Source of the DNA: an uncultured Heliobacteriaceae bacterium
GTDB taxonomy: Bacteria; Acidobacteriota; Blastocatellia; RBC074
NCBI GenBank assembly: GCA_964563495.1
Contig: CAZLYK010000003.1
Span: 4,554 to 68,553, forward strand
Length of the DNA stretch: 64,000 nt
Reading direction: 5' to 3'
Shown in pieces: positions 9,989-32,777 of the stretch. The notes beneath the pieces were generated by a model. The model ran no database searches, had not been told where the DNA came from, and saw only the letters and a list, made by a program, of their open reading frames with translations. Numbering within the stretch: position 1 is the stretch's first letter; each line of letters opens with the position of its first letter. The translations under genes and the position numbers were made by a program.

Positions 9989-10005
9989 CTTAAGCCTCCT
10001 TTCCT

Positions 10006-12567: not shown

Positions 12568-12582
12568 ACTGAGAGAGCGAAT

Positions 12583-13917: not shown

Positions 13918-14128
13918 ATATTTTTGACTGTGCATAAATCCCCAGATCTTGTGAGTAATAATGCGCACGAAGTGAATTTTTACGTCCCGCCTTTGATATC
14001 CCAGCCTGAAGAAGATCCGGAACGGGTGTTGCATGGGCTAATTGAGCAGTTCCGTGCAATGCTTTAAATAAGTGGCAGATCCTTATTGCCGATTTTTTTT
14101 CAATCCCAGATTCAGAAAAGGGGGGCCC

Positions 14129-15249
14129 ATGGCTGGTTCGACATCCACCATTTGGCAGTCCATGCAATCGAAGGGATATTCCCGCCGCGACTTTATCCAT
14201 TTCTGCACGGTAGCGGCAACGGTTGCTGGCATCGAAGCAACGGCCCTGAACACGGTTGTCCAGGCATTTGAAAATAAACCCCGCCCACCTGTAGTCTGGC
14301 TGCATTTTCAGGAATGCACCTGCTGCAGTGAGTCATTTATCCGCTCATCGCATCCGATCGTCGCCGACATCCTGCTCGATTATCTATCGCTCGATTATAC
14401 CGAAACATTGCAGGCCGCCGCGGGTCATCAGGCCGAAAAGTGTTATCAGGACACGATCAAGAAGTACCCGGGCCAGTATATTCTGGTGGTCGAGGGTTCG
14501 GTTCCGATGAAAGACGACGGTATCTACTGCATGATCGCCGGCCGGTCGGCGGAAGAGATCCTCAAGGAAGCGGCGAAAGACGCCGCGGTAGTGATTGCGT
14601 GGGGCAGTTGCGCCTCAAACGGATGCATCCAGAGCGCGAAACCGAATCCGACCAACGCGACTCCGATTCACAAGATTATCAACAAGCCGGTCATCAATGT
14701 TCCCGGCTGTCCCCCGATTGCCGACGTCATGACGGGCGTGGTCACGCACCTGCTGGTCTTTGGCCGCCCGCCCTCACTCGACAACCAGGGTCGTCCGAAA
14801 GAGTTTTACGGTCGTCGAGTTCACGACACGTGTTACCGGCGGCCTTATTACGACGCCGGCCTGTTCGTCGAATCGTGGGACGATGAGGCCGCGCGCAAGG
14901 GTTATTGCCTCTACAAGATGGGCTGCCGCGGCCCCGTTACCTACAACGCCTGTTCGGTCACCAAATGGAACGGAGGCGTCAGTTATCCGATTCAATCAGG
15001 TCACGGTTGCATCGGTTGCAGCGAGAACGGGTTCTGGGATAACGGCCCGTTCTACCAGCATCTGGCTTCGTTCCCGGGCTTTGGGATAGAGAGCACGGCC
15101 GATACGATCGGGACTGTTGCCGGTGTCGTGACGCTTGCGGGAGTGACACTTCACGCAATCACCACGAACATCCGGAAGCACAAGTTGATCAAAGAAGAGG
15201 TTGTCGATTCGATCGAAACCGAAAAAGAAGTGGAAGGAGGTGATCAGCA

Positions 15250-15253
<4 letters not shown>
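14129..15253 (+). CDS. hyaA: [NiFe]-hydrogenase small subunit, membrane-bound group 1, with O2-tolerant-type cysteine pattern
   Basis: The start at MAGSTSTIW follows AAAAGGGGGG. It has a Tat motif SRRDFIHF, the ECTCCSESFIRS and WGSCASNGC motifs (both supernumerary Cys of a [4Fe-3S] proximal cluster), and a C-terminal TM anchor. Confidence 0.9.
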
Positions 15254-16965
<1,712 letters not shown>

Positions 16966-16976
16966 GGAGGCGCACC

Positions 16977-17711
16977 ATGTCGACGAGACCTGAAGCAATT
17001 TTCGAAGCCTACCCGGTCCACCATGCGAGCTACAGGAAGATTTATGTCTGGGAATTGCCAGTCAGAATCTACCATTGGCTCAATGCCTTGTGCGTCATCA
17101 CGCTGAGCGTGACCGGCTATTTGATCGGTAAACCACTGGCCATCTCTTACTCCAGCGAAGCCTATCAGCAGTACTGGTTCGGGACGGTCAGGTTCATTCA
17201 CTTCGTTGCCGCGTTTATCTTCTTCTTTAATTTCCTGGCGAGAATTTATTGGGGGTTTGTCGGTAACGAACATGCTCGCTGGAGTAATTTCATCCCATTC
17301 AGCGGGTCGCAATGGCGGGAGATACGAGAAGTGTTGAGAGTCGATATCCTACAAACCAAATTGGGCGAGTTGATCACGATCGGTCACAACTCGCTGGCAG
17401 GTTTGATCTACTTTCTCTCATTTCTCGTCGCCCTGTTTCAGGCGATTACCGGCTTCGCTCTCTATTCGAGTATGAGCAAATCGTTCTTCCCTCAACTCTT
17501 CGCCTGGATCGTGCCGCTGATGGGCGGCGATTTTGCCGTTCGCCAATGGCATCACGCGTTTATGTGGTTCTTTGTCGTCTTCATCATCGTCCATGTCTAT
17601 CTGGTCGTTTATCACGATTATGTCGAAGGACGGGGAACAACCTCCTCGATGGTCGGGGGGTGGAAATTCGAGCGGGATGATGAACTCAAACGGAAGCTGT
17701 CTCAGAAATGA
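16977..17711 (+). CDS. hyaC: Hydrogenase b-type cytochrome membrane subunit
   Basis: The start MSTRPEAIF follows GAGGAGG. It has four TM helices with conserved His, typical of HyaC/HupC. Confidence 0.85.
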   Translation: MSTRPEAIFEAYPVHHASYRKIYVWELPVRIYHWLNALCVITLSVTGYLIGKPLAISYSSEAYQQYWFGTVRFIHFVAAFIFFFNFLARIYWGFVGNEHARWSNFIPFSGSQWREIREVLRVDILQTKLGELITIGHNSLAGLIYFLSFLVALFQAITGFALYSSMSKSFFPQLFAWIVPLMGGDFAVRQWHHAFMWFFVVFIIVHVYLVVYHDYVEGRGTTSSMVGGWKFERDDELKRKLSQK

Positions 17712-18162
17712 GGGTGCATCCGGCGCTCTCATCCTCGGCATCGGCAACGTGCTCATGGGGGATGAGGGCGTCGGGGTCCGGGTCGTCGAGGAGTTGCAAA
17801 AAGCTTCACTGCCCGTCGGGGTGGAATGCCTGGACGGTGGGACGGGCAGTTTTTTGCTGCTCGACCCGATGCAGCGGGTAAAGAAGGTGATCCTGATTGA
17901 CGCGACCGTGGACAGCGAGACGGTGGGGACGGTCCGCCGGCTGGAGCCGCGTTTTTCAAAAGATTACCCGCGCACCCTGACCGCGCACGATATCGGATTG
18001 AAGGATTTGATCGATGCCTTCTACCTGCTCGGCGAAGCGCCGGAGGTAGTTTTGTATGCGATCTCGATTCCGGCGCTCCGGGAAATGAGTCTCGAACTTT
18101 CGCCCGAAGTCAGCGCGGCCGTGCCGCGAATCGCGAAGCTGGTTCGAGCCGAGATTGAATAG
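17677..18162 (+). CDS. hyaD: Hydrogenase maturation endopeptidase
   Basis: The ALILGIGNVLMGDEGVGVRVVE N-terminus and DGGT motif fit the HyaD/HybD family. The start is uncertain: the ATGs at 17677/17680 overlap the hyaC 3' end, and an alternative non-ATG start could lie near 17707. Confidence 0.75.
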   Translation: MMNSNGSCLRNEGASGALILGIGNVLMGDEGVGVRVVEELQKASLPVGVECLDGGTGSFLLLDPMQRVKKVILIDATVDSETVGTVRRLEPRFSKDYPRTLTAHDIGLKDLIDAFYLLGEAPEVVLYAISIPALREMSLELSPEVSAAVPRIAKLVRAEIE

Positions 18163-18169
18163 TAGAAGA

Positions 18170-18511
18170 ATGCACGAAATGTCGATCATTCAGGGCGTGC
18201 TGGAAATTGCCGAAGGCGAGGCGCGTAAACACGGCGCCGCAAGGATCAATGAGATCAAGCTCAGACTCGGTGAATTTTGCGGGGTTGTCCGTGAGGCGCT
18301 GGATTTTGCTTTCGAGGCTTTGAAGCGGGGCACGCTGGCTGCGGATGCCAGGTTGAATATCGAGACGATTGAGCTGGTCGTCGAATGTCCGGATTGTGCT
18401 CTGGTCGAGACCTTGAAAGGCGAAATCAGTTTTATCTGTCCGCGATGCGGTGGGTTATTGAAGATCATCACCGGGCGCGAGATGCAGATCGAATATATTG
18501 ATTTGGATTGA
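18170..18511 (+). CDS. hypA: Hydrogenase nickel-insertion protein HypA
   Basis: The N-terminus MHEMSIIQGVLEIAE fits HypA. It has a CPDC...CPRC zinc site. Confidence 0.85.
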   Translation: MHEMSIIQGVLEIAEGEARKHGAARINEIKLRLGEFCGVVREALDFAFEALKRGTLAADARLNIETIELVVECPDCALVETLKGEISFICPRCGGLLKIITGREMQIEYIDLD

Positions 18512-18525
18512 ATTGAGGTGATTGG

Positions 18526-19197
18526 ATGCATCAGGTTAATCTGGAGACCGATATGCTGGAGATGAATCAACATCTCGCCGAGGAGAACGCGGAGATCTTC
18601 CGGAAGCAGGGCGTTTTCGTCATGAATCTCATGTCGGCGCCGGGCGCGGGAAAGACATCGATCCTCGAACAGACGATTGGTCGGCTTAAGCAAGCTTGCC
18701 GGATCGGTGTGATCGAAGGCGATCTCGTCACGACCATCGATGCCGACCGGATCTCCGTACTCGGTGTACCTGCTTACCAGATAACTACCGGAACCGTCTG
18801 TCACCTGGACGCTCGAATGGTCCACAATGCGCTGCACACTTTTCCGATCAGCGGGTTGGACCTGCTGGTAATCGAGAATGTCGGCAACCTGGTCTGTCCG
18901 GCTGAGTTTAATTTGGGTGAAGATCTGAAAGTCATGGTCTACAGCGTAGTCGAGGGTGCCGAGAAGCCGATGAAGTATCCGGTCATGTTTCACGAAGCGG
19001 AGGCCGTCCTGCTCAATAAAATCGACCTCCTGCCTTATTCGGGCGTCAGCCTGGAAGATCTGCGGCGCAATGTACTCGCGGTCAACCCGCGCGCTCAGAT
19101 CATTCCCGTCTCCTGCCGAACCGGTGAGGGTGTCGATCAGTGGATCGACTGGCTGAAAGGAAGAATAGACAGGGTTAACCGGATTTCACCGGATTAA
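18526..19197 (+). CDS. hypB: Hydrogenase maturation GTPase HypB (short form without His-rich N-terminus)
   Basis: SAPGAGKTS P-loop and ENVGNLVCP motifs. The last 11 codons and the stop are encoded inside repeat element E3. Confidence 0.85.
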   Translation: MHQVNLETDMLEMNQHLAEENAEIFRKQGVFVMNLMSAPGAGKTSILEQTIGRLKQACRIGVIEGDLVTTIDADRISVLGVPAYQITTGTVCHLDARMVHNALHTFPISGLDLLVIENVGNLVCPAEFNLGEDLKVMVYSVVEGAEKPMKYPVMFHEAEAVLLNKIDLLPYSGVSLEDLRRNVLAVNPRAQIIPVSCRTGEGVDQWIDWLKGRIDRVNRISPD

Positions 19198-19263
19198 ACA
19201 GGATCAAAGGCAGCAGAAAAAATCCGGTTCAATCCGGTGAAATCCTGTCGATCCTGTCTATTT
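19164..19263. repeat. Palindromic intergenic element E3 (overlaps the hypB 3' end)
   Basis: AATAGACAGGG ... ATCCTGTCGATCCTGTCTATT with an internal inverted repeat ccggatttcaccggatt / aatccggtgaaatcc. Confidence 0.75.
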
Positions 19264-19311
19264 TTGATGATGAACACGAGTCCTCGATTACAACCCGGTG
19301 AGCGGTTGCGA

Positions 19312-21579
19312 ATGGTGATCCGCGGCGCGGTGCAGGGAGTTGGCTTTCGCCCGTTTATCTATCGCCTGGCGACCGGATTGGGGTTATCGGGATGGGTCAG
19401 GAATTCGTCACAAGGAGTCTTGATAGAGGTCGAGGGTGCGAGGGAGAGGTTGGAGGCTTTTTTGCTGGGGATCGAGAGGGAGAGGCCGCCGCGGTCATTC
19501 ATTCACAGCCTCGAATCGGCTTTCCTGGATCCAGTGGGATTGACCGGTTTCAAAATCCTGGAGAGTGCCGAGAGCGGCGCAAAGACCGTCCTCGTCCTGC
19601 CCGACATCGCGACTTGTCCGGATTGCCTGGGTGAAGTCTTCGATCCCGCTGACCGCCGCTATCTTTATCCATTCACCAATTGCACCAACTGCGGGCCGCG
19701 TTTCAGCATTATCGAAGCCCTGCCGTATGACCGCGTGAACACGACCATGAAGAAATTCACCATGTGTCAGGCATGTGCGGCAGAGTACCATGATCCGCTC
19801 GATCGAAGATTCCACGCGCAGCCGAATGCCTGTCCCGAGTGCGGTCCTCAACTGGAGTTGTGGGACAGGGCAGGAAAGATTCTCTCCCGGCGCGGTGCGG
19901 CGCTGATCGGGGCCGCCGAGGCGATCCGCCGCGGCGAGATCGTGGCGGTCAAGGGGTTGGGCGGATTTCATCTGATGGTCGACGGCCGCAACCACGCGGC
20001 GATCGATCGGTTGCGACGGCGCAAGCATCGTGAAGAGAAGCCGTTTGCGCTCATGTGCCCGTCGGTCAAACAGATTGAGAGTAACTGCCGGGTCTCAGAG
20101 ATCGAGCGCCGTCTATTGCTTTCGCCGGAATCGCCGATCGTCCTGCTCGAACGAGCATCGACAATTCCAAATCGCCACTCAGCCATCTCCAGGTCGGCAG
20201 CCCCGGGGAATCCGTATCTCGGCGTCATGTTGCCGTATACGCCGCTGCACCATCTGCTGCTCTCAGAGCTCGACTTTCCGATCGTGGCGACGAGCGGCAA
20301 TCTGACCGATGAGCCGATTTGCACAGACGAACTGGAGGCGCTCGAAAGGCTGAGCGGGATCGCGGACCTGTTGCTGGTTCATGATCGGCCGATTGCGCGG
20401 CATCTGGACGATTCGATCGTCCGCGTCATGGCCGGCCGTGAGCTGGTCATGCGTCGCGCCCGCGGGTATGCGCCGCTGCCGCTTCATTTAAGTCAAGCCA
20501 TGCCGCCGGTGCTCGCCACCGGCGCAGATTTGAAGAGCGCGATTGCGATCTCGGTCGGGAATGATGTCTTCATCAGCCAGCACATCGGCGACCTGGAAAC
20601 CGCGCCGGCTGATGAGGCCTTTCGGCGAGTCACCGAAGACTTTGAAAAGCTCTACGATTTCCAGCCTTCCCGTGTCGCGTGTGATTTGCATCCGGATTAC
20701 CGCTCGACCAGGTTCGCCGAATCTCTGGGGAGGAAGGTCGAGCATATTCAACATCATTGCGCGCACGTCGCGGCGTGTATGGCCGAGAACGAGATTTGGG
20801 GGTCGGCGCTGGGTGTCGCCTGGGACGGAACCGGATACGGGCTGGACGGGACCATCTGGGGCGGCGAGTTTTTGCAGGCCGCCGGCGGGGATTTTCATCG
20901 TGTCGCGCATCTTCGTACTTTCCCGCTGCCCGGTGGCGAGAGAGCCGTGAGGGAGCCGCGCCGGATTGCAATCGGGATGCTCTATCAAATCTACGGCGCC
21001 CGGCTGTTCGAGATGGAGGACCTGGCGCCGCTCAAAACATTGACTACTCACGAGCGCGGAATCCTGCGGACCATGCTGGAGCGCAAGGTCAATACGCCGC
21101 TGACCTCGAGCGCCGGCCGGCTCTTCGATGCCGTGGCCGCGATCACGGGCCTGCGCCAGACAGCCAGGTTCGAGGGGCAGGCCGCGATGGAGCTGGAATT
21201 TGCGCTCGGAGGCATGATCGACAATGAGACCTATCCATTCGAGATCGGGCCCGAAACGGGGCCGGGTTCTGCCGGAGTGATCGATTGGGAACCGATGATT
21301 CGCGCGATCCTGGATCACGTCGCTGACCATATTTCGATCGCTCAGATCTCGGCGCGCTTTCACAACACGCTGGTCGAATCGATCATCGCGGTCGCGCGAT
21401 TGACGGGCGAAGAGCGGATTTGCCTGTCCGGAGGCTGTTTTCAGAACAGGTATCTGACCGAGAGGGCAATCTCTCGTTTGCGCGAGGTCGGCCTGCGTCC
21501 TTACTGGCACCAGCGCATTCCGCCCAACGATGGAGGGATTGCGCTCGGCCAGGTTGTCGCGGCCGCTGGGATAATCTGA
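19312..21579 (+). CDS. hypF: [NiFe]-hydrogenase maturation carbamoyltransferase HypF
   Basis: Acylphosphatase domain (VQGVGFRPF), two CxxC...CxxC zinc fingers, a YrdC-like domain and a Kae1-like domain. The start is taken at MVIRGAVQG; an upstream ATG at 19267 is also possible. Confidence 0.9.
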   Translation: MVIRGAVQGVGFRPFIYRLATGLGLSGWVRNSSQGVLIEVEGARERLEAFLLGIERERPPRSFIHSLESAFLDPVGLTGFKILESAESGAKTVLVLPDIATCPDCLGEVFDPADRRYLYPFTNCTNCGPRFSIIEALPYDRVNTTMKKFTMCQACAAEYHDPLDRRFHAQPNACPECGPQLELWDRAGKILSRRGAALIGAAEAIRRGEIVAVKGLGGFHLMVDGRNHAAIDRLRRRKHREEKPFALMCPSVKQIESNCRVSEIERRLLLSPESPIVLLERASTIPNRHSAISRSAAPGNPYLGVMLPYTPLHHLLLSELDFPIVATSGNLTDEPICTDELEALERLSGIADLLLVHDRPIARHLDDSIVRVMAGRELVMRRARGYAPLPLHLSQAMPPVLATGADLKSAIAISVGNDVFISQHIGDLETAPADEAFRRVTEDFEKLYDFQPSRVACDLHPDYRSTRFAESLGRKVEHIQHHCAHVAACMAENEIWGSALGVAWDGTGYGLDGTIWGGEFLQAAGGDFHRVAHLRTFPLPGGERAVREPRRIAIGMLYQIYGARLFEMEDLAPLKTLTTHERGILRTMLERKVNTPLTSSAGRLFDAVAAITGLRQTARFEGQAAMELEFALGGMIDNETYPFEIGPETGPGSAGVIDWEPMIRAILDHVADHISIAQISARFHNTLVESIIAVARLTGEERICLSGGCFQNRYLTERAISRLREVGLRPYWHQRIPPNDGGIALGQVVAAAGII

Positions 21580-21581
21580 AA

Positions 21582-21630
21582 AATAGACAGGATCGACAAG
21601 ATTTCAAAAGAGATTAAACAGGGATAGAAC
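21582..21630. repeat. Truncated (left-half) copy of the palindromic element, E4
   Basis: AATAGACAGGATCGACAAGATTTC with no matching right terminus. It begins 3 nt after the hypF stop. Confidence 0.55.
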
Positions 21631-21654
21631 CTGGCATTGAGGGGAAACAGGAAA

Positions 21655-22782
21655 ATGACCGGAGTTTTGCCAAATCAGCGGCCGATTGACCAGATCGATC
21701 CCGATCATTTGGAGCGGATCAAGGGGCTCAAGCACATGATCGGAAACACGCCACTGCTGGCGATCAATTTTAAGTTCAGAGGCCGGCCGCGCGTCGTCTA
21801 CGCCAAAGCCGAAAATCTCAATCTGACCGGCAGCATCAAGGATCGCATGGCCTATCACATTTTAAAGAGGGGGTATCAGGAAGGCATGATCCGGGAAGGC
21901 GACACGATCGCGGAGGCGACCAGCGGAAACACCGGCATCTCATTCTCGGCGATCGGACGCGCGCTTGGGCACCGGGTGGTGATCTTCATGCCCGACTGGA
22001 TGAGCCAGGAGCGAGTCGCTTTGATTCGCAGCCTGGGGGCGGAGATCGTGCCGGTCAGCCGGGAGGAAGGCGGTTTCCTGGGCAGCATCAGGAAGACCGA
22101 GGCCCTGGCGAGTGGCGAAGATCGCGTCTTCCTGCCCCGCCAATTTTCGAATGAGGCGAACGTCGAGGCCCATGAGCAGACGACCGGCCCCGAGATCTGG
22201 TGGCAGCTCAACCATCTCGGGCTCGCGCCGGATGTCTTTGTCGCCGGGGTCGGCACCGGGGGGACGATCATGGGAGTCGGTCGCTATCTGCGCGACCGGC
22301 GGCCCTCAATCCGCCTGCACCCGGTCGAGCCGGCCGAGTCGCCGACTCTCTCGACCGGCCACAAAGTCGGCCAGCATCGGATTCAGGGCATCTCCGATGA
22401 GTTCATCCCATCTATTGTAGAGCTCGATCAACTCGATCATGTCATCGGCGTCAACGATGGCGACGCGATTCTCATGGCGCAGAATCTGGCGAGCTGTCTG
22501 GGTCTGGCAGTCGGCATCTCCTCCGGGGCCAATTTTATCGCCGCCTTGATCGCGCAGAACGAGCTCGATGAAGATGCCGTCGCCGTCACCGTCTTCCCGG
22601 ACAGCAACAAAAAATATCTGAGCACCGACCTGCTCAGAAGCGAGCCGGTCAGGGATGGCTATCTCTCGCCCGAGATCGAGTTGATCAGTTACCGGTCGTT
22701 CAAACGCGTCTGCAGCACCTGCTACGACCTGGACGACGTGCTGCAGACCTACCTGATCAACCAGCCCAGAGGGGTCAGTTGA
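21655..22782 (+). CDS. Cysteine synthase / cystathionine beta-synthase family PLP-dependent enzyme with a roughly 60-aa C-terminal extension
   Basis: GSIKDR PLP-lysine motif; SGNTG and GxGTGGT glycine-rich loops. The substrate cannot be assigned from sequence. Confidence 0.75.
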
Positions 22783-22804
22783 TCAGGAGAATCGGGATTC
22801 ATCT

Positions 22805-23983
22805 ATGTTTAAAGAAGCAACCGTCAGACAATTGAAGAGAGAGGAATTTCAGCGCGAGCTCGGGCGTTATGGCGGGATCGTTCCCGGACCGCTGGTGATC
22901 TGCATTGGCGGAATTCACGGCAACGAACCGGCCGGCGCGCGGGCGTTGCAAAACGTGCTGGCGGATCTCCAGGCGGCCAGGCCGGCTTTCAACGGTGAGT
23001 TTGTGGCGCTGGCGGGAAATCTGGGGGCGCTCAATCAGGAGACCCGTTATCTGCTTCGCGATCTAAATCGCATGTGGTTACCCGACCAGGTCGAGCGGCT
23101 CAAATCCGAATCGTTGAGCGGTTCCGAAGAAGCCGAATACCTGGAACAGCGAGAATTGCTGGCGGCGATCGAATCGGTGATTGCCGGTCGAACGGGTAAT
23201 CTGATCTTTCTTGATCTGCACACGACATCGTCGGACGGGGCCCCCTTTGCGCTGATCAGCGACACGCTGGTCAACCGGCATCTGGCCATGAGGCTCGGCG
23301 TGCCGATCATCCTTGGCCTGGAAGAGAACATAGAGGGGACGATCCTCAATTACATCAACGAGCTCGGATTTGCGGCGATCGGGTTTGAGGCCGGCCAGCA
23401 CCAGGCGCCGTCGTCGGTCAAACATCACGAAGCCGTGATCTGGCTGGCCCTGGTCGAAGCCGGATGTCTCGCCCCGCAGCGGGCTCCGGAGCCGGCGGCT
23501 TTAAGGTCCGGCTTGAAAAAAGCCGTCAACCGGATCCCCCGGGTCATGGAGGTTCGTTATCGACACGCGATTCAGGAATCCGATCAATTTGTTATGCGGC
23601 CGGGGTTCACCAATTTTCATCCGGTCGAAAAATCGCAACCGCTGGCAAGCGACCATCTGGGCGAGGTGAGGTCCCCGGAGGATGGATTGCTGTTTATGCC
23701 GCTCTACCAGAAATTGGGTGAGGACGGCTTTTTCCTGGTCCGTCAGGTCAACACCTTCTGGCTGAAAGTTTCTGAATACATGCGGCGGCTCAAATTTGAC
23801 CGGGTCGTGCCGTTTTTACCCGGCGTCGATTATCTGCCCGGGCGGCGTGACGCCCTGGTCATCGACACACGGATCGCCCGCTGGTTTGTCATTGAAATTT
23901 GCCATCTGCTCGGTTTCCGCAAACACTCTCAAGTCGAGGGAAGGCTGGTAGTCAGCCGCAGACGGCAATCTCCCGAAGATTAA
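22805..23983 (+). CDS. Succinylglutamate desuccinylase / aspartoacylase family zinc hydrolase (M14-like deacylase)
   Basis: [10 protein letters not shown] zinc-binding motif. AGGAGA RBS. Confidence 0.7.
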
Positions 23984-24005
23984 GGAAACGGAGGCATTCA
24001 TATTT

Positions 24006-25643
24006 ATGTTACCGATACGAAAAATAGCCGATCAGCTCAACCTCTCGGATGACCATCTGGTCTATTACGGTGAGCATACGGCCAAGTTGAAATTGGATCT
24101 GCTGGACGAATCAAGGAAGCCGAATCGCGGGAAGTTGATTATGGTCACGGCGATTACCCCGACCAGCCATGGTGAAGGGAAGACGGTGGTCTCGATTGGG
24201 TTGGCGCAGGCTATCACGCGCTGCGGCAAGACGGCGCTGGCGACGCTGCGCGAGCCTTCACTCGGGCCGGTCTTCGGTTTGAAAGGCGGCGCGACCGGTG
24301 GCGGTAAGGCGCAGGTGCTGCCGGCCGAGAAGATCAATCTGCATTTCACCGGAGATTTTCACGCGATCACGTCGGCTCATAACCTGCTGGCCGCAGTGAT
24401 CGACTCACACTTACACCACGGCAACGAATTACGATTCGATGTCGACAACGTCTTCTGGCCGCGAGCCATGGATATGAACGACCGGGCACTGAGACATATC
24501 ATCGTCGGGCTTGGCGGGAAGATGAACGGAGTGCCGCGCGAGACCGGGTTCGTGATCACCGCCGCTTCGGAGGTCATGGCGATTATGGGCCTGGCCAAAT
24601 CGCGTCATGATTTGCGGCGGCGGCTCGACGAGATAGTGGTCGGTTTCAACCTCGACGGCCAGCCGATACGCGCTCGCGATCTGCACATCACCGGCGCCTT
24701 GATGGTCCTGCTCAATGAGGCGATCATGCCCAACCTGGCGCAGACCACCGAAGGCACACCGGCGCTTGTCCACACCGGCCCGTTTGCCAACATCGCGCAC
24801 GGGACGAGCAGCGTTATCTCCCAGATGATGGCCATGAGGCTCGCCGATTACGTCGTCAACGAATCGGGTTTCGGCGCGGAACTGGGGGCGGAGAAATATT
24901 TCGATATAGTCATGCCGCATTCGGGCCTCAAGCCCTCGGCCGCGGTTCTGATCGCCACCGTCCGCGCGCTGGCTTCGCACGGCTCGACGCCGGATAATCC
25001 CAGCGAGGTGAGTGCCGCAGCGGTGCAGAGGGGGTTGGCCAACCTGGCCAAGCACCTGGAAAACCTCCGCAAATACAAAGTCCCCGTGGTCGTCGCGATC
25101 AATCGCTTCAACACGGATACCGATGATCAGATTGAAGTGATTCGCGGCTTCTGCCGTGAAGCGAGGGTCGAATCGGCAGTCGTAGAGGTCTATAATCAAG
25201 GCGGCGAGGGGGCGATCGAACTGGCTGAAAAGGTCATGGCGATCGCTGAAAAAAGCCGCCCGGAAGAGGTCACGCCGATCTATCATTCGGACATGAGCCT
25301 GGAAGAGAAGATCGGACGGGTAGCCACGGAGATCTACGGCGCCAGCGGCGTTAACATCGAGTCTGAAGCGCGCAAGAAGCTGAAGAAGTTCGCCTCGCTC
25401 GGGTTCGGTCACTATCCGATCTGCATGGCCAAGACCCAGTCGTCTTTGACCGACAATCCGAAGCTGCTCGGCGCTCCATCCGGATGGACACTGACCGTCT
25501 CGGACGCCCATCTTTCGGCCGGGGCCGGCTTCGTCGTCGTCGTCGCCGGATCGATGATGTTGATGCCGGGGCTGCCAAAAGTGCCCCAGGCCGGCAAATT
25601 GGACGTCGACGGGCACGGCGCGATTACCGGGATGAATTACTGA
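24006..25643 (+). CDS. fhs: Formate--tetrahydrofolate ligase (formyl-THF synthetase)
   Basis: PTSHGEGKTVVSIGL P-loop region and overall length typical of FTHFS. Confidence 0.9.
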   Translation: MLPIRKIADQLNLSDDHLVYYGEHTAKLKLDLLDESRKPNRGKLIMVTAITPTSHGEGKTVVSIGLAQAITRCGKTALATLREPSLGPVFGLKGGATGGGKAQVLPAEKINLHFTGDFHAITSAHNLLAAVIDSHLHHGNELRFDVDNVFWPRAMDMNDRALRHIIVGLGGKMNGVPRETGFVITAASEVMAIMGLAKSRHDLRRRLDEIVVGFNLDGQPIRARDLHITGALMVLLNEAIMPNLAQTTEGTPALVHTGPFANIAHGTSSVISQMMAMRLADYVVNESGFGAELGAEKYFDIVMPHSGLKPSAAVLIATVRALASHGSTPDNPSEVSAAAVQRGLANLAKHLENLRKYKVPVVVAINRFNTDTDDQIEVIRGFCREARVESAVVEVYNQGGEGAIELAEKVMAIAEKSRPEEVTPIYHSDMSLEEKIGRVATEIYGASGVNIESEARKKLKKFASLGFGHYPICMAKTQSSLTDNPKLLGAPSGWTLTVSDAHLSAGAGFVVVVAGSMMLMPGLPKVPQAGKLDVDGHGAITGMNY

Positions 25644-25677
25644 CCGATCTGTTTTCGTTATCGTAGGAGCAACTCTT

Positions 25678-25929
25678 ATGTGTCTTGCTGTTCCGGGAAA
25701 CGTCGTCAGCATAGAGGGCGAGGACCTGCTCCGCCACGGTAAGGTAAATTTCGGCGGCATCGTCAAGCACGTCAATTTGAGCTACGTGCCGGAAGCGAAG
25801 ATCGGCGATTACGTGATCGTGCATGTCGGTTTTGCGATCAGTATCGTCGATCAGGCGGAAGCCGAACAGGTCTTCGAATTCCTGCGCTCGCTCGATGAGC
25901 TGTCTGAGCTTGAAGGGGAACCGCGATGA
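25678..25929 (+). CDS. hypC: Hydrogenase maturation chaperone HypC
   Basis: MCLAVPG N-terminus. Confidence 0.85.
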
Positions 25930-27029
25930 AGTTCATCGACGAATACCGCGACGCCGAATCTGCTCAGACCTGCGCCGAAGCCATTGCCGGACTGATCACC
26001 CGGCCCTGGACGCTCATGGAGGTCTGCGGCGGTCAGACGCATTCGATCGTCAAGTTCGGCATCGATGAGCTCCTCCCAGCTGAGTTGACGCTGGTCCACG
26101 GGCCCGGCTGTCCGGTCTGCGTGACCCCTCTCGAGCAGATCGATAAGGCGATCGAGATCGCTTCGCGCCCCGAAGTGATCTTCTGTTCCTTCGGCGACAT
26201 GCTGCGCGTCCCCGGCAGCGAGAAGGATCTCTTCATGGTCAAGGCGGCAGGCGGGGATGTCCGCGTAGTCTATTCGCCGCTCGATTGTTTGAAGATCGCG
26301 CGCGAGAATCCCGGCAGGATCGTCGTCTTTTTCGCGGTCGGGTTCGAGACCACGGCGCCGCCGAATGCGATGGTCGTATATCAGGCGCGCGAGCAGGGGA
26401 TCGACAACTTTTCGATCCTCGTTTCACACGTCCTGGTCCCTCCGGCGATGGAGGCGATCCTCTCTTCGCCGGGCAACCGCGTCCAGGGCTTTCTGGCCGC
26501 CGGCCACGTCTGCACGGTCATGGGCTATACCGAATATGAGCCGATCGCCGATAAGTACCGTGTGCCGATCGTCGTCACCGGGTTCGAGCCGCTCGATATA
26601 TTGCAGGGCGTGCTCATGTGCGTCCGGCAGTTGGAGGAAGGGCGGGCAGAGGTCGAAAACCAGTATGCCCGTTCGGTCAGACGCGAAGGTAACCAGCACG
26701 CCCAGAAGGTGATCAATCAGGTTTTCCGGGTCTCACCCCGCAAATGGAGGGGGATCGGCGAGATCCCGCAAAGCGGCCTGACTTTGAGCGAAGACTATGC
26801 CGAATTCGACGCCGAGCGCAGGTTCGGATTGACCGGTTACACCGCCGATGAGCCGTCCGAATGCATAAGCGGGTTGATCATGCAGGGCGTCAGGAAACCG
26901 CACGAATGCACGGCTTTCGGCTCACGGTGCACACCCGAAAAACCTCTCGGCGCGCCGATGGTCTCGAACGAAGGCGCCTGCGCCGCCTATTACCGATATC
27001 GACGGAACCTGGGAAATAGACAGGATTGA
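25926..27029 (+). CDS. hypD: Hydrogenase maturation protein HypD
   Basis: [13 protein letters not shown] and FEPLD motifs. The last four codons plus the stop (NRQD*) are encoded by repeat element E5. Confidence 0.9.
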
Positions 27030-27090
27030 CAGGATTTGACCAGACCTGATCTTGTTCAGTCCTGCATCGATCCGGTTGATCATGTCTATT
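27015..27090. repeat. Palindromic intergenic element E5
   Basis: AATAGACAGGATTGACAGGATTTGACC ... GATCATGTCTATT (right TIR slightly degenerate). Confidence 0.75.
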
Positions 27091-27109
27091 TTCTCGACGG
27101 GTCTTGATT

Positions 27110-28165
27110 ATGGCCGAAGATCTAGATTTCAACCTTTCGTGTCCGATCCCGATCGGGCAATACCCGCAGGTTTTGCTGGCTCACGGCGGGGGCGGCAAGC
27201 TCATGCATCAGTTGATCGAGCAAATGTTCGTCCCCGCCTTCGGCAATCCGTTGCTCGGCTCGCGCCACGACGGCGCGGTCCTGGAGATGAATGGCGCGAG
27301 ACTGGCATTCACCACCGACTCTTATGTCGTCCGCCCGATCTTCTTTCCCGGCGGCGACATCGGCACGCTGGCGATCAACGGCACGGTCAACGACCTGGCC
27401 ATGTGCGGAGCCCGGCCGCTCTATCTCAGCGCCGGCTTCATCCTGGAAGAAGGATTGCCGATGGAGTCGCTCTGGCGGATCGTGCAATCCATGCAGCGAG
27501 CGGCTGAAGAGGCCGGCGTACAGCTCGTCACCGGCGATACCAAGGTAGTCGATAAGGGCAAGGGAGACGGCATCTTCATCAACACGGCCGGCGTCGGCCT
27601 GATCGATCACGCACAGGTGATCGCGCCTGCGAGCGTCAGGGCCGGCGACGCCGTCCTGCTGAGCGGTGATCTTGGCCGCCACGGCATCTCGATTATGGCC
27701 ACGCGTGAAGGGCTGTCGTTTGAATCCGAGATCGAAAGCGATTGTGCGCCGCTCGCCGATCTGGTGCGCCGGATGATCGAGGCCGGGGTCGAGCTTCACT
27801 GCTTGCGGGATTTGACCAGAGGCGGTCTGGCCAGCGCCCTGGTCGAGATCTCCGAGGTTTCGGGGCTCCAGATCAGGATAGACGAAAACGCTATCCCGGT
27901 CCGTGAAGATGTCCGTGGTGCCTGCGAGATCCTGGGTCTGGACCCGCTTTACCTGGCCAATGAGGGCAGATTCGTTGTCTTTCTTCCGGCCACCCACGCC
28001 GACCGGGCGTTGGCAATCCTGACCGCGCATCCGCTCGGTCAAAACGCCGCGCTCATCGGGCGCGCCGAGCAGGGCTCATCGAATCATGTCCTGATCAGAA
28101 GCTCGATCGGCGCCCTCCGGATCGTCGATATGTTCAGTGGAGAGCAACTGCCGAGAATTTGCTGA
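27110..28165 (+). CDS. hypE: Hydrogenase maturation protein HypE
   Basis: AIR-synthase-like fold. C-terminal PRIC with terminal Cys (the carbamoylation/cyanation site). Confidence 0.9.
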
Positions 28166-28185
28166 ACTAATCCGCTCAACCCTGC

Positions 28186-28539
28186 CTACCTCTTCTTCGC
28201 TATCGCCTGCCCGGTGAATGCGCTCGCGTGCGCTTCATACTTCTCCTGCAAACTGGAACAGACCAGATCGCATAGCTCGAAGATCGATTCGTCAGCGATC
28301 GAATAATAGACCGTATTGCCTTCCTGTCGACGCCCAACCAGCCCGGCATCCTGCAAAATGCGCAAATGCTTGCTCACATTCGGCTGCGTCGATTCCACCT
28401 CGGCTGCAATCGAATTGACACTCATCCCTCCGCCTTCCAATACCTGCAGTATTCGCAGCCTCATCGGATCCGAAAGCACCTTGAACCGAGCCGCCACCAA
28501 TTGCAACGCCTCCATCGTCTTGATCAACTGCCTCTTCAC
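28186..28539 (-). CDS. ArsR/SmtB-family transcriptional regulator
   Basis: MRLRILQVL and QPNVSKHLRIL winged-HTH motifs. Divergent from the DUF302 gene. Confidence 0.8.
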   Translation of the reverse strand: MKRQLIKTMEALQLVAARFKVLSDPMRLRILQVLEGGGMSVNSIAAEVESTQPNVSKHLRILQDAGLVGRRQEGNTVYYSIADESIFELCDLVCSSLQEKYEAHASAFTGQAIAKKR

Positions 28540-28564
28540 TCTTTCGATCTTCCCTTTCTTTAAG

Positions 28565-28612
28565 ATGGTGCTTGACTATATGATTCTATAGTTATATAGT
28601 AATTAAGTCAAG
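28565..28612. promoter_or_regulatory. AT-rich palindromic candidate operator in the ArsR/DUF302 divergent promoter
   Basis: ttgactatatgattctatagttatatagtaattaagtcaa. It has outer TTGAC/GTCAA arms and inner CTATA...TATAG repeats. Confidence 0.4.
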
Positions 28613-28781
28613 AGAGACAAAAATAATTGATTCCGGCAAACGGAATTTTTTCGTGGTGGTGGTGAGAGGTGGCATAGGACGTGCAGTTAACTGAGATAAA
28701 TTACCGGCGTTGATGGTCTTTGAACATGAGGCGTAGCGAGCGAAATCATAAAATTCGCTGATGATTGAGAGGAATAAAGAT

Positions 28782-29201
28782 ATGAAGCAAGGAACGGGAA
28801 AGCAGAGTGTACGTGACATGGGCTATGGGATGAGCCGGGAGTTGGACATTTCATTTGCCCAGGCGGTTGAACGCACGAAGGAGGCGCTCAAGGCCGAGGG
28901 ATTCGGCGTGCTGTTTGAAATCGACATGAGGGAGAAGATGAAGGAGAAGCTGGGGCTGGATTTTCGCAACTATATTATTTTGGGGGCGTGCAATCCGCCG
29001 ATTGCGTATCAGGCGTTGCAGGAGGAGATCGGTTTGGGTTTGTTGCTGCCGTGCAATGTAGTGGTGTACGAAGAGGGTGGTAGATCTGTGGTTGCGGTGA
29101 TCGATGCCGAGAAGATGATGTCGATCGTGGGTAACCCCAAGCTGGGGACAGCCGCCGCGCAGGTCAACGAGAAACTTGATCGGGCTCTGGCCAGTCTATA
29201 A
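28782..29201 (+). CDS. DUF302 domain protein
   Basis: Start at MKQGTG after GAGAGGA. Family assignment is by overall similarity and is moderate. Confidence 0.55.
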
Positions 29202-29229
29202 CTCAAATAAAATTTGAAAGGAGAAAGTC

Positions 29230-29439
29230 ATGACCGTTGAAAGGGCACTCAGGCTGATTGCGGGCACTTTTGTTTTGGCGTCTTTACTGTTGGGTATTTA
29301 TCACAGCCCGAACTGGTTCTATTTCACCGGCTTTGTCGCCCTCAACCTAATCCAGTCGGCCTTTACCAACTGGTGCCCGATGATGGCGTTCCTGCGTTGG
29401 ATTGGGCTCAAGGATGAAGGGCAGCCGCGCCTGGTCTAA
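29230..29439 (+). CDS. DUF2892 (YgaP-like) small membrane protein
   Basis: 69 aa with two TM segments and a NWCP motif. Confidence 0.55.
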   Translation: MTVERALRLIAGTFVLASLLLGIYHSPNWFYFTGFVALNLIQSAFTNWCPMMAFLRWIGLKDEGQPRLV

Positions 29440-29613
29440 AGACCGTTCTGCCTGTGAAATCTTCCCATTAAAGCGTGCGGGCGCCCAGGCGTTGGGTGAT
29501 TTTTCGCAACGGTGCCTGGGCGTCATAATTGGAATTTGTTCTATCTGATCGCCTGATAATCTATGGCATCTTTTTTGCGTGATTGACCAAGATGACGAGT
29601 TGGAGTTTGGTTA

Positions 29614-29640
29614 AATCCTGCAAAGATCATGTCTATTCTG
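29614..29640. repeat. Solo right-end fragment of the palindromic element, E6
   Basis: AATCCTGCAAAGATCATGTCTATTCTGCC resembles the right termini of E1 and E5. Confidence 0.5.
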
Positions 29641-29703
29641 CCTGTTGTCGGTCGTTTAATTAGGTGATGGATGGGAAATGAGGGCTAAAAAGGGACGAAA
29701 GCG

Positions 29704-31095
29704 ATGATAGCCAAAACCAGGAAGAATATTTCGATGGCGCTCGTAGTTTGGCTGTGTTTGTGGGGGACGGGATTTGGTTTGATGGCGGGTGCGCAGTCCC
29801 AGGGATCTGTCGGATCCGATGGTCTGAGATTGCCGGTGGCGGTGGAGATAGCTTTGCGGGGTAATCCGCTGGTGCGGGCGAGCGCGTCGGGCCGGGAGAT
29901 GGCGGATGCGCAATTGAGCGAGGAGAGATCCGCCCGTTTGCCGGTTTTACAGTTCAGTGAAAATTTCATACGCAGTAACAATCCGGTCTTCGTTTTTGGC
30001 TCGCTCCTGGAGCAGGCCCGTTTCGGGGCGAGCAACTTCGCTCTGCCGGGGCTCAACAATCCGGATTCGCTGAGTAATTACCGGACGGCGCTGACTCTCA
30101 AGATGCCTGTCTTCGATCAATGGCGATCATCGACCCGGATCAACCAGGCGAAATTCTTGCAGCGGCAAGCCGAGGCTCAAACCGATCAGGTGCACCAGCA
30201 GCTTCGATACGAGGTTCTCAAGTCTTTTTACGGTGTCCTGCTGGCGGAGGCCGGAAAAGAGGTCGCCGACGAGGCTGTCAAGCTTGCTCAAGCCGATATC
30301 AAGCGGAGCCGCGATCGGATGGATGCGGGAGTTGCAGTGGCTTCGGATCTGCTCGCGGCGGAGGTGCAGTTGGCCGAATTCAGGCAGCAGCAGATTCAAG
30401 CCGAGGGAGAGATAGTGACCGCGAGAGCCGCGCTCAATACCGTCCTGGGATTGCCGATCGAGACACCGCAAAAGATCGCCGGCGAGCTGGCCGAGAAGAC
30501 CTTCAGCGTCAGTGTCCAGGATGAACTGATGGAAGAGGCATTGCGGCATCGCCCGGATTATTCGCGTGCCGGGTTGGCTCTCAGTTCGAGCCGTGAGGGG
30601 GTGAGGGCCGCTCGCGGCGAGAACCTGCCGCGGTTCGACGTCTACACCAGTTTTGGGACGAGTGGGCGCAATCTATGGAGCGGGAGCGGGGATTATCTGG
30701 TCGGCGCCAGCCTGAGCTTCAATCTGCTGGATTTCGGGCGGTCGGCGCGGATCAACCGCGCGCGCGCGGCCGAGACCATGGCGATGAGCGAGCAGCAACA
30801 TCTGGCCAACCAGATCCGGTTGGAGGTAGTTCGCGCCAATCAACAGTACCTGACGGCACGTGAGCGGCTGGTCGTCGCCGGCCGCGTGATCAACCACGCG
30901 ACCGAGGCCCTGCGGATCGTGCAGGATCGCTACAACGAGGGGCTGACCACGATCACCGAAGTCCTGCGCGCTGAGACTGCTCTGGTTCGCGCTCGCCTCA
31001 ACCTGCTCACAGCCCGTTACGATCATTATCTGGGCTATGCCGGTGTGTTGCTGGTGACCGGAAGACTGACCGATGTGCAACCGTTTGTTTCCTGA
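29704..31095 (+). CDS. Outer membrane efflux protein (TolC-like OMF)
   Basis: Signal peptide followed by two OEP repeats with coiled-coil segments. Confidence 0.75.
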
Positions 31096-31109
31096 GATCC
31101 GGATGGGGG

Positions 31110-32318
31110 ATGAAGATGAAGAAGAAAATTGCCCTGATCACAACCATCGCGATCTTTTCAATCGTCGCAGCCTCGTGCTCAAAAAAAGAGAAGGCTTCGA
31201 GCGAGAAGGCGCCGGTTGTTAAAGGCGCAGAGTTGGAGAAAGTCGCGGCTTCAACGATCGGCGATTATATCGAGGCGACGGGGACCGTACGCTCAAAGAC
31301 CACGACCGTGCTCTCATCGAAGATTATGGGAACCGTGATTTCATTGCGCGTCCGCGAAGGAGACAGAGTCGGAGCCGGTCGGACATTGATCGAGATCGAC
31401 AACCGGGATGCGGCGGCGCAATTGCAGAAAGTGCAGGCCGGGTTGCGAGAGGCGCAACAGGCGCTGGCTGAGGTCGAGCAATCATCGAGCGCCGCCCAAT
31501 CGGCGAAGAATGCTGCTCAAGCCAACCGGCGTTTGGCCGAGACTACTTTGAACCGCTACCAGATGCTGCTCGATCGAAAATCCGTCAGCCCCCAGGAGTT
31601 CGACGAAGTGAAGGCGAAGTACCAGGTGGCTGAAGCCGAGGCCGAGCGCGCCGACAAGATGCTGCAGATGGTCGCCGCGAAAAAGAATCAGGTTCTGGCG
31701 CGGATCGATCAGGCCAACGCCGAGATCGCCAACGCCCAGGTCTATCTCGGTTACGCCCGGATCGCCTCGCCGATGAGCGGCGTGGTGACGACCAAACAGA
31801 TCGAGCTGGGAGCAACGGCCATGCCGGGAGCGCCTCTGCTGACGATCGAAGACGGGGCCCATTACCGCCTCGAGGCGGCGGTCGAAGAATCCCGGATCGG
31901 AAAGATCCGCCTCAACGACAAGGCCTTGGTTCGGATCGACGCGATCGGACCGGAGGAATTCGATGGGGTGGTGGCCGAGATCGCCCCCGCGGCCGATCCG
32001 GCCAGTCGCAGCTACTTAGTCAAGATAGATATTCGCTCGCCGAAAGCCCAGTCGATGCTGCGTTCGGGGCTTTACGGCTCCGTGCGGTTCGCAGCCGGGC
32101 AGAAGCAGGTTCTGACGATTCCGCAAAAGGCCGTGATTCAGCACGGCCAGTTGATCGGTGCCTTCGTCGTCGACGACGCCGGCGTCGCGCGCTTGCGGTT
32201 GATCAAACCCGGGAAGAGATACGGTGAACGGGTAGAGGTGCTCTCGGGGTTGAATGATGGCGATCGCATTGTCGTCGACGGCGTCTCAGGCGTGAGCGAT
32301 GGCAGTCGAGTGCAGTGA
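31110..32318 (+). CDS. RND efflux periplasmic adaptor (membrane fusion protein)
   Basis: Lipoprotein-like N-terminus, coiled coil, and beta-barrel/MP domains typical of the HlyD/AcrA family. Confidence 0.8.
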
Positions 32319-32334: not shown

Positions 32335-32709
32335 ATGACTACCCTGAAATATGATACGTTTTTCAATCTGGACGCCCTTTCGCTGATCGCCAAAGGGCTG
32401 AGCCTGATCAGCATTCTGATCCTCGCGCTTTTCTTTATCGGCGAAGGGTTCAATCCATCGAAGATTCAGCTCAATGAATGGATCCTCTTTCTCTTCTTTC
32501 CGTTCGGCCTGATTACCGGGATGGTTGTCGCCTGGTGGAAAGAGGGGCTGGGCGCGATGATCGCGGTCGGCAGCCTGGTCGGATTTTACCTGGCCCATTT
32601 TCTGCAGACCGGAGGGCTGCCGCGCGGATGGGCCTTTCTGGCCTTTGCCGTGCCCGGATTTCTGTTTCTCGTCCATTGGCTGATAACCAGGTTCAATCGA
32701 CAGGATTAA
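32335..32709 (+). CDS. Small four-TM membrane protein of unknown function
   Basis: Start MTTLKYDTFF after AAGGGGGAA. The last 5 codons plus the stop (FNRQD*) are encoded by repeat element E7. Confidence 0.4.
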   Translation: MTTLKYDTFFNLDALSLIAKGLSLISILILALFFIGEGFNPSKIQLNEWILFLFFPFGLITGMVVAWWKEGLGAMIAVGSLVGFYLAHFLQTGGLPRGWAFLAFAVPGFLFLVHWLITRFNRQD

Positions 32710-32777
32710 CAGGATTTCAACAGGATTAAACCGGATGGTTTTCCATCTTGCTTTTGATCCGGTTAACCCTGTCTATT
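32695..32777. repeat. Palindromic intergenic element E7
   Basis: AATCGACAGGATTAACAGGATTTCAACAGGATTAAACCGGAT ... ATCCGGTTAACCCTGTCTATT. Confidence 0.75.

Follow-up and report, generated by a model that had tools for sequence, protein, structure and literature searches.

Does a formate–tetrahydrofolate ligase gene (fhs) that lies inside a hydrogenase maturation operon take part in assembling the hydrogenase cofactor, or is it there for another reason? The question is raised by a 64,000-nucleotide stretch of DNA (hereafter the window) from an uncultured bacterium of the class Blastocatellia, phylum Acidobacteriota (GenBank assembly GCA_964563495.1, contig CAZLYK010000003.1, positions 4,554 to 68,553). 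Here, three genes, which encode a cysteine synthase-like (cysK-like) pyridoxal phosphate (PLP) enzyme, a zinc amidohydrolase of the AstE/AspA family (AstE-like) and Fhs, separate hypF from hypC in the operon of a membrane-bound [NiFe] hydrogenase. A preliminary description of the locus proposed that fhs marks a route from 10-formyltetrahydrofolate (10-formyl-THF) to the carbonyl (CO) ligand of an O2-tolerant enzyme, and that the PLP enzyme and the deacylase feed this route. We consider it probable, instead, that two independent units, a hydrogenase operon and a string of resident genes, were interleaved by a single rearrangement that was then retained, with the cysK-like and AstE-like genes as bystanders and fhs as an ordinary gene of its family.

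Two gene sets interleaved at one locus

The gene order that had been described, hyaS-hyaL-cytb-hyaD-hypA-hypB-hypF, then cysK-like, AstE/AspA-like and fhs, then hypC-hypD-hypE, was borne out by Pfam and NCBIfam for every call. All of the genes are intact and located on the + strand, and they are co-directional and tightly spaced, again as described. With gene starts set according to calls made on an independent assembly of this locus, the cysK-like gene (positions 21655–22782) begins 75 nt after hypF (19312–21579) and is followed at 22 nt by the AstE-like gene (22805–23983), which is followed at a further 22 nt by fhs (24006–25643); fhs ends 34 nt before hypC (25678–25929). The hydrogenase genes form two blocks (14072–21579 and 25678–28165) that flank the resident string within a conserved backbone. 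Both the hypF–cysK-like and the fhs–hypC junctions were recovered in two independent Logan assemblies from separate runs (SRR14932511 and SRR14932634), and a chimeric assembly is therefore excluded. Values of GC and of GC at third codon positions (GC3), computed for each gene, showed no compositional contrast between the blocks and hence no sign of a foreign block.

The three-gene string is resident in Blastocatellia

A set of 80 genome loci, each containing a homologue of the AstE-like protein, was collected, and every protein of the window was used as a query against it. The homologues belong mostly to Acidobacteriota (Blastocatellia) and Binatia, and the nearest match other than the protein itself was 69% identical. 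In 10 of the 80 loci, all assigned to Blastocatellia, Blastocatellales or Acidobacteriota by name or synteny, fhs lies at most 55 nt 3΄ of the AstE-like gene, and the Fhs proteins are 76–80% identical to that of the window; in locus L021, the two genes are one open reading frame (ORF) apart. A cysK-like orthologue (71–73% identity) is located directly 5΄ of the AstE-like gene in five loci. In L176 and L178, whose Fhs proteins fall in the clade next to that of the window, a cysK-like orthologue (69–70%) stands directly upstream of fhs, and the AstE-like and hyp genes are absent. Hyp genes adjoin the string in none of the AstE-like loci; only in L077 do they occur at all, 2.2 kb off and on the opposite strand. 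Across the class, pairwise linkage of the three genes is thus found without hyp genes and is independent of the hydrogenase.

The chromosomal surroundings lead to the same unit. Window genes at 7367–7795, 7838–10063, 10006–11043, 11175–12071 and 12583–13917, which encode cytochromes, a 741-residue beta-barrel-like protein and, last, an ATP-grasp-like protein (+ strand; weak similarity to CP_ATPgrasp_2), have orthologues of 60–77% identity in the same order around the AstE-like gene and fhs in L004, L013, L010, L014 and L005. The same holds for an ArsR-family regulator gene (28186–28539, – strand), a resident backbone neighbour whose orthologues lie 3΄ of the AstE-like/fhs region in related genomes, and for efflux genes at 29704–32318. 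The string is the lineage's own set of resident genes, with chromosomal flanks that are conserved in relatives having no hydrogenase genes at that site.

In related genomes, the AstE-like gene usually has the ATP-grasp-like gene as its upstream neighbour, and orthologues of the latter (71–77%) stand directly upstream in L004, L006, L011, L013 and L018; in the window, the hydrogenase block separates the two. The same gap in L083 (2271–9531) holds ∼7 kb of unrelated stress-type genes (two Usp, archease, DksA-like, BON and DUF2867), and the position is therefore variable, which suggests an insertion hotspot between the ATP-grasp-like and AstE-like genes.

Several metagenome-assembled genome (MAG) records titled Heliomicrobium, Heliobacteriaceae or Enterobacteriaceae also carry the AstE-like gene (L002, L006, L007, L009, L015, L018, L020 and L031). 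Most of them show synteny of the Blastocatellia type (cytochromes, fhs or cysK-like), and their taxon labels look wrong; L031 differs in having a neighbourhood with a GCS2+CBS ligase, a type discussed below.

A sister lineage with fhs between hypF and hypC

The complete arrangement hypF-cysK-like-AstE-like-fhs-hypCDE, for which conservation in related genomes had been proposed as a check, was not found in the relatives examined. What was found is the shorter order hypF-fhs-hypC-hypD-hypE, in a second, diverged lineage that is represented by six independent assemblies (L096 and L170–L174). In L170–L174, the genes run HycI-like, HycI, hypF, fhs, hypC, hypD and hypE, with gaps of 27 nt and 64 nt. 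L096 is a short metagenome contig on which the C-terminal part of Fhs (74% identical to the window protein, and identical to P0264) is followed by hypC, hypD and hypE; this partial Fhs was found only without the filter of ≥50% query coverage. Identities between the sister lineage and the window are 65% for HypF, 76% for Fhs, 72% for HypC, 83% for HypD and 76% for HypE. As in the window, fhs is located between hypF and hypC, and the Fhs and Hyp proteins form the sister group of those of the window. Unlike the window, L170–L174 have two HycI-like genes before hypF, no hypA or hypB at the upstream position, neither the cysK-like nor the AstE-like gene, and unrelated flanks (DUF1501 and PSCyt2/PSD1).

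The phylogeny of HypF by itself was star-like (all distances 0.30–0.33), and a concatenated HypD+HypE tree was therefore needed for resolution. In the concatenated trees, the window and L170 were sisters in 94 of 100 bootstraps (HypD+HypE) and in 96 of 100 (HypF+HypD+HypE), and the canonical loci L085, L088 and L093 were next nearest by distance in the concatenated Hyp comparison. The neighbour-joining tree of Fhs also placed the two embedded groups as sisters, with weak support (89/200 bootstraps). Since the window and the second lineage are sisters in the Hyp trees, they represent one retained evolutionary event and not a recurrence. P0125, a candidate close relative in the HypF-only tree, was rejected because its contig has the canonical order hypB-hypF-hypC.

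The preliminary description had reasoned that absence of the three genes from the hyp clusters of all relatives would indicate an unrelated insertion. Judged in this way, the cysK-like and AstE-like genes drop out, as neither is in the hyp cluster of any of the 80 closest HypD loci or the five closest HypF contexts, whereas fhs is retained on the strength of a single instance, the sister lineage.

Interruptions in related hyp clusters

The nearest HypF homologues (63–68% identity) span many phyla, and the five closest HypF contexts are all canonical, with the order hypA-hypB-hypF-hypC-hypD-(x)-hypE. We further compared 80 metagenome loci, those whose HypD proteins are the closest (73–83% identity). 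Among the 40 loci that hold both hypF and hypC, the two genes are adjacent in 39 when a gap of up to 450 nt is allowed, and in 38 at a limit of 400 nt. The cysK-like gene was found in none of the 80 loci (0/80) and in none of the five closest HypF contexts (0/5). The AstE-like gene was likewise absent from the hyp clusters of the 80 loci, and its single case, in L152, lies outside the cluster and 3΄ of hypE. Canonical relatives (L085, L087, L088, L093, L152 and L138) have the same hypABFCDE genes in the same order as the window, with HypF, HypC, HypD and HypE proteins 62–83% identical; in these relatives, hypC directly follows hypF, whereas the window has 4.1 kb with three unrelated genes at that junction.

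L152 (2325–16454; Ga0138256_10000065) contains the closest orthologue of the hydrogenase (large subunit 79%, small subunit 74%), in an uninterrupted hyaSLCD-hypABFCDE cluster. Further on, in the same direction, are genes for a NicO-like nickel transporter, a distant AstE-like protein (41%) and a GCS2+CBS ligase, which makes L152 a second instance of an AstE-like gene beside a hydrogenase cluster of this type.

Extra sequence of more than 450 nt within the hypF..hypE interval was present in 12 of the 80 related loci (∼15%). The inserts sampled in six of these 12 encode a pyruvate:ferredoxin oxidoreductase (PFOR) together with a dihydroorotate (DHO)-dehydrogenase-like protein, an ArsP permease, PAS-GGDEF proteins and a CHAT-TPR protein, none with an evident tie to maturation; in L087, a nitroreductase gene lies between hypD and hypE. 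Full-length PFOR genes are a recurrent cargo, co-directional and located between hypC and hypD in both L134 (5220–9898) and L132 (2196–6280); the DHO-dehydrogenase-like gene follows PFOR in L134, the only one of the two whose genes were covered by the profile scan. The PAS-GGDEF diguanylate cyclase genes of L101 (11086–12819) and L141 (11086–12981) lie between hypD and hypE on the opposite strand. Because unrelated interruptions of hyp clusters are not rare, location inside such a cluster is weak evidence of function.

Proteins encoded by the string

The cysK-like protein carries the Pfam domain PALP and scores below the NCBIfam cut-offs for the ordinary enzymes (304 against 344 for cysKM, 297 against 351 for cysK and 214 against 394 for cysM). 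Its residues 20–352 align to residues 8–339 of the 340 in PDB entries 5B53, 5B55 and 5Z5C (E = 1e-120, ∼57% identity). These entries are Fn1055 of Fusobacterium nucleatum, a cysteine (hydroxyl) lyase, which forms serine and H2S from cysteine and water (PMC9865163). The similarity is full-length and includes a C-terminal extension that is absent from ordinary CysK; differences are ∼20 extra N-terminal residues in the window protein, and a host that is an aerobic-type acidobacterium and not an anaerobe. We accordingly place the protein in the Fn1055 subfamily, as a putative cysteine (hydroxyl) lyase homologue that would catalyse Cys + H2O <-> Ser + H2S.

The AstE-like protein belongs to a subfamily of 390 residues and matches AstE_AspA_cat (PF24827, 60 bits against a cut-off of 25); its zinc ligands H38, E41 and H139 do not vary among 20 homologues. 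It is not an equivalog of AstE or aspartoacylase, with NCBIfam scores of 36 against 306 bits (astE) and 43.5 against 180 (aspartoacylase). The fold of its AlphaFold model (predicted local distance difference test score, pLDDT, 86.8) matches AstE, DoeB/EutE, aspartoacylase, aminoacylase 3 and CphZ (Foldseek probability 1.0, template modelling (TM) score 0.5–0.6) and has the same H-x-x-E...H zinc site; identity to these amidohydrolases is only 13–22%, however, and the window protein has an additional conserved C-terminal region. Its gene is accompanied by those for amide ligases (GCS2+CBS or ATP-grasp-like), by the cysK-like gene or by fhs, and not by ast or ectoine genes. A GCS2-like carboxylate-amine ligase of ∼640 residues with two CBS domains is encoded within three genes of the AstE-like gene in 29 of the 80 AstE-like loci, mostly directly upstream and co-directional. 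It is the commonest neighbour elsewhere, and outside Blastocatellia the pairing occurs without fhs. The AstE-like protein is thus possibly a hydrolase partner of amide ligases, perhaps in the metabolism of cysteine or low-molecular-weight thiols, although it might conceivably be a formate-releasing deformylase, which would explain the link to fhs.

The pair of GCS2+CBS and AstE-like genes is seen within L028–L079 (e.g. L044 7623–11167 and L067 8061–11116), in loci labelled Binatia, Gemmatimonadota, Cyclobacteriaceae, Planctomycetota and Thermoanaerobaculia, and we could assign it to no known pathway. In Binatia, ∼10 loci (e.g. L044 11312–14432) have three membrane-protein genes (clusters 12, 8 and 9) 3΄ of the AstE-like gene; by eye only, their products resemble subunits of copper membrane monooxygenases (pmo/amo-like).

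Fhs has a full-length FTHFS domain (PF01268, 782 bits) and, in NCBIfam (PRK13505/NF010030), scores 775 bits with NF010030 against an equivalog cut-off of 652. It is 81% identical to an Fhs of Blastocatellales and 66–75% identical to other acidobacterial Fhs proteins, as expected of an ordinary, vertically inherited gene. By tree and identity, as distinct from copy number, the window protein nests among the Fhs of Blastocatellia and Acidobacteria and does not stand apart as a dedicated paralogue. Seven residues are common to the two embedded Fhs groups only, and they give no evidence for or against neofunctionalization.

These results bear on the proposal in its full form, in which Fhs is fed by the PLP enzyme and the deacylase, for instance through deformylation of an N-formyl amino acid, and the three genes together make up a formyl-THF-linked ligand pathway. 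The pairwise linkage of the genes in many genomes may reflect a shared pathway, a formate-releasing amidase beside a formate-fixing ligase would be chemically sensible, and in the window all three do lie between hypF and hypC. The linkage, however, exists where no hydrogenase genes are nearby; the sister lineage kept fhs in its hyp operon and dropped the two others; the cysK-like protein matches a cysteine (hydroxyl) lyase; and the usual partner of the AstE-like gene outside Blastocatellia is the GCS2+CBS ligase, without fhs. We therefore regard the three-gene pathway as very improbable. The cysK-like and AstE-like genes are most likely bystanders, as nothing ties them to ligand synthesis.

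Type of hydrogenase and supply of the CO ligand

The small subunit gene (14072–15253) encodes a protein with a twin-arginine (Tat) signal and the six-cysteine proximal-cluster signature of O2-tolerant enzymes of the group 1d type (CTCC and GCIQ), in which the motifs ECTCCSESF and GSCASNGCIQ supply the two supernumerary cysteines. Its nearest solved relatives are Ralstonia eutropha HoxK and Escherichia coli Hyd-1, and also the membrane-bound hydrogenase (MBH) of H. marinus. The large subunit (15250–16965; identified by Pfam and NCBIfam), on the other hand, is nearest to the Allochromatium vinosum enzyme (3myr; 834 bits against 757 and 683), followed by Hyd-5 and Hyd-1. The assignment to an O2-tolerant type in the preliminary description is consequently supported by the small subunit only. 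The operon further encodes a cytochrome b membrane anchor (16977–17711; Ni_hydr_CYTB) and a specific maturation endopeptidase of the HycI/HyaD type (17680–18162; HycI domain).

All of HypA–HypF are present with their family domains (Pfam): HypA (18170–18511; HypA domain), HypB (18526–19197; CobW/HypB), the carbamoyltransferase HypF (five of five HypF domains), HypC (HupF_HypC), HypD (25926–27029; HypD) and HypE (27104–28165; AIRS/AIRS_C). HypC and HypE look intact because the former begins with MCLAVPG, in agreement with the MCxxxP pattern, and the latter ends with PRIC.

HypX consists of an N-terminal formyltransferase domain and a C-terminal crotonase-like domain. In agreement with the earlier statement that the window has no hypX, neither domain was found in any of the sizeable ORFs of the 64 kb that were scanned with Pfam, and hence no gene that combines the two. 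Fhs makes 10-formyl-THF but by itself cannot make CO, and to our knowledge the sole known route from 10-formyl-THF to CO needs HypX. Under aerobic conditions, 10-formyl-THF is the established precursor of the CO ligand and is converted via HypX (PMC12134894). The same 2025 review calls the origin of the ligand without HypX the most pressing open question for [NiFe] hydrogenases, and it names formate and formyl intermediates among the candidates for the anoxic route (PMC12134894).

One of the closest known systems is the MBH cluster hoxKGZ...hypA1B1F1CDEX of Cupriavidus necator (R. eutropha). As in the window, hyp genes come after the genes of a membrane-bound [NiFe] enzyme whose small subunit is of the six-cysteine type and whose anchor is a cytochrome b, and the aerobic CO-ligand biochemistry of C. 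necator starts from 10-formyl-THF, via HypX. The window differs in having neither hypX nor the extra Hox/Hup maturation genes hoxLOQRTV, and in having the gene for the ligase that makes the substrate of HypX within the operon instead. Its large subunit is also closer to the A. vinosum enzyme.

These comparisons raise the possibility that fhs only, with the cysK-like and AstE-like genes as bystanders, is functionally coupled to [NiFe] cofactor assembly and maintains a supply of 10-formyl-THF (or formyl phosphate) from which the carbonyl ligand is made. The formyl group would then be used by a HypX whose gene lies elsewhere, or it would enter a route on HypF/HypCD that does not involve HypX. Several observations are consistent with such coupling: the order hypF-fhs-hypCDE was kept in two sister lineages despite reshuffled surroundings, the spacing between fhs and hypC is tight with no hairpin in the gap, the six-cysteine signature is present in the small subunit, hypX is missing from the window, and HypX chemistry begins with 10-formyl-THF while formyl intermediates are candidates for the anoxic route (PMC12134894). 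However, the arrangement has a single evolutionary origin in one event, and Fhs groups with ordinary acidobacterial Fhs. The partners of fhs that are conserved class-wide are the cysK-like and AstE-like genes, not hyp. Moreover, fhs lies beside hyp genes in none of the 79 other closest-HypD loci (0/79), where hypF and hypC are nearly always adjacent (39/40), and the hyp clusters of relatives are often interrupted by unrelated cargo. The limited chemical capacity of Fhs also counts against the coupling. Literature searches on fhs together with hyp genes, and on HypX in Acidobacteria, yielded nothing relevant, neither a link between fhs and hyp nor a paper that describes the order hypF-fhs-hypCDE. 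We therefore judge a functional coupling of fhs to CO-ligand supply unlikely. Its stronger form, in which Fhs was recruited as a dedicated formyl-donor supplier for the carbonyl ligand of an O2-tolerant [NiFe] enzyme, acting through an unlinked HypX or by handing formyl phosphate or 10-formyl-THF to HypF/HypCD without HypX, seems to us more doubtful still. The proposal that fhs marks a formyl-THF-linked route thus survives in part: retention in two sister lineages and the lack of hypX in the window speak for it, and the single origin and the ordinary nature of Fhs against it.

Palindromic repeats and transcription

The preliminary description also noted repeat copies that bracket the block. 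Copies do occur at 21575–21624 (a half copy, in the hypF–cysK-like gap) and at 27008–27094 (in the hypD–hypE gap). They belong to a palindromic intergenic element of ∼90–145 nt with the termini AAATAGACAGGATT and AATCCTGTCTATTT, which has at least 10 copies in the window. Palindromic copies were located at 530–614, 7258–7350, 19156–19265, 21575–21624, 27008–27094, 29602–29647 and 32688–32737, and further at 38548–38630, 47189–47334, 54552–54668, 59000–59096, 59767–59823 and 61673–61780. They usually lie directly 3΄ of stop codons and form very stable hairpins; they look like a REP (repetitive extragenic palindromic)- or MITE (miniature inverted-repeat transposable element)-type element, or a terminator module. 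Because the palindrome is found in the hypB–hypF gap and at ten or more other sites, the bracketing is real but not specific to the block.

A recent insertion of a cassette by a mobile element between the repeat copies, or an assembly chimera, could be read from the two bracketing copies and from the half element between hypF and the cysK-like gene, a possible breakpoint. We give this explanation almost no credence. The junctions were recovered in two assemblies, the arrangement is older than the split from a lineage whose Fhs is 76% identical, the repeat family occupies at least 10 intergenic sites including the hypB–hypF gap, and the block has neither a transposase or integrase (Pfam) nor a GC3 contrast. 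As borders of a mobile cassette the repeats are ruled out, the element being a genome-wide intergenic palindrome. Under the two-unit explanation, the half element may nevertheless mark the breakpoint of the rearrangement.

We computed RNA folding in the gaps of the operon. Strong hairpins were obtained only at hypB–hypF (copy at 19156–19265, folded from 19150 to 19270; –54 kcal/mol, z = –8) and at hypD–hypE (–35 kcal/mol, z = –3.6). The half copy in the hypF–cysK-like gap gave no significant hairpin, and the fhs–hypC gap had none. A single transcript probably spans hypF, the three genes of the string, hypC and hypD, as these are separated by neither a hairpin nor a terminator. A scan of 12000–29500 for promoter and terminator consensus sequences returned the same counts as shuffled sequence and was uninformative, and an Rfam scan of the whole window gave zero matches.

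A possible history of the locus

The two units would be, first, a complete membrane-bound [NiFe] hydrogenase operon with hypABFCDE and, second, the resident three-gene string. In the history that we favour, an island with the hydrogenase and hyp genes would have inserted at the variable site that lies between the string and the ATP-grasp-like gene, and a local swap of adjacent blocks, the string against hypCDE, would then have given hypF-string-hypCDE. The swap would have taken place a single time, in an ancestor that the window and sister lineages share. At this site, the sister lineage would afterwards have lost the genes for the cysK-like and AstE-like proteins and kept hypF-fhs-hypCDE. The products of these two genes would most likely act in cysteine/thiol and amide metabolism, not in maturation, while Fhs would do its normal one-carbon (C1) job. 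Retention of fhs in the operon may be neutral: were hypCDE dependent on read-through across an essential C1 gene, which cannot be dropped, the arrangement would be hard to undo. Alternatively, though less probably, its retention may reflect the supply of 10-formyl-THF for CO-ligand synthesis to a HypX encoded elsewhere.

Several points weigh against this explanation. Selection for linkage would also give the pattern in which fhs stayed fixed between hypF and hypC across ∼24% protein divergence, during which nearly everything else in the sister lineage changed (hypAB are no longer at their position, the cysK-like and AstE-like genes are gone and the flanks differ). The hydrogenase is of an O2-tolerant type in a mostly aerobic class, with no hypX in 64 kb, and the established aerobic precursor of the CO ligand is the very product of Fhs, 10-formyl-THF (PMC12134894). 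In addition, the order of the historical events and the co-transcription of the genes are matters that we infer.

Other features of the window

The region 638–12071 is rich in genes of respiratory or extracellular-electron-transfer-like type, including several multihaem c-type cytochromes, a cytochrome b (4138–5235), a Rieske protein (5236–5745) and a NapC/NirT-like protein (5706–7241). Part of this set is kept beside the AstE-like gene and fhs in Blastocatellia MAGs. The 741-residue protein of the backbone has no Pfam match, and its orthologue looks like an outer-membrane barrel. Elsewhere in the window, the product of a gene at 38573–40030 joins a metallo-beta-lactamase fold to rhodanese domains, as do enzymes of the persulfide dioxygenase type; a DUF302 gene (28761–29201) and tatA/tatC genes (47325–48865) are also present.

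Significance for hydrogenase maturation and for Acidobacteria

The hyp operon takes a new form in hypF-(cysK-like-AstE-like)-fhs-hypCDE, one for which our literature searches gave no published description and whose parts all belong to known families, the hydrogenase to the group-1 membrane-bound enzymes. Two gene sets that came to light beside it are conserved or widespread and undescribed: the acidobacterial string of an Fn1055-type lyase, an AstE-like amidase and fhs, and the pairing of the AstE-like amidase with the GCS2+CBS ligase. If the arrangement is, as seems most likely, a retained rearrangement without special meaning, it is a caution against guilt by association in hyp clusters. That two sister lineages of aerobic-type Acidobacteria have kept fhs in the hypF–hypC interval is at the same time a weak but testable lead to the CO ligand's origin; a dedicated Fhs, if there is one, would tie formate directly to that long-sought origin.

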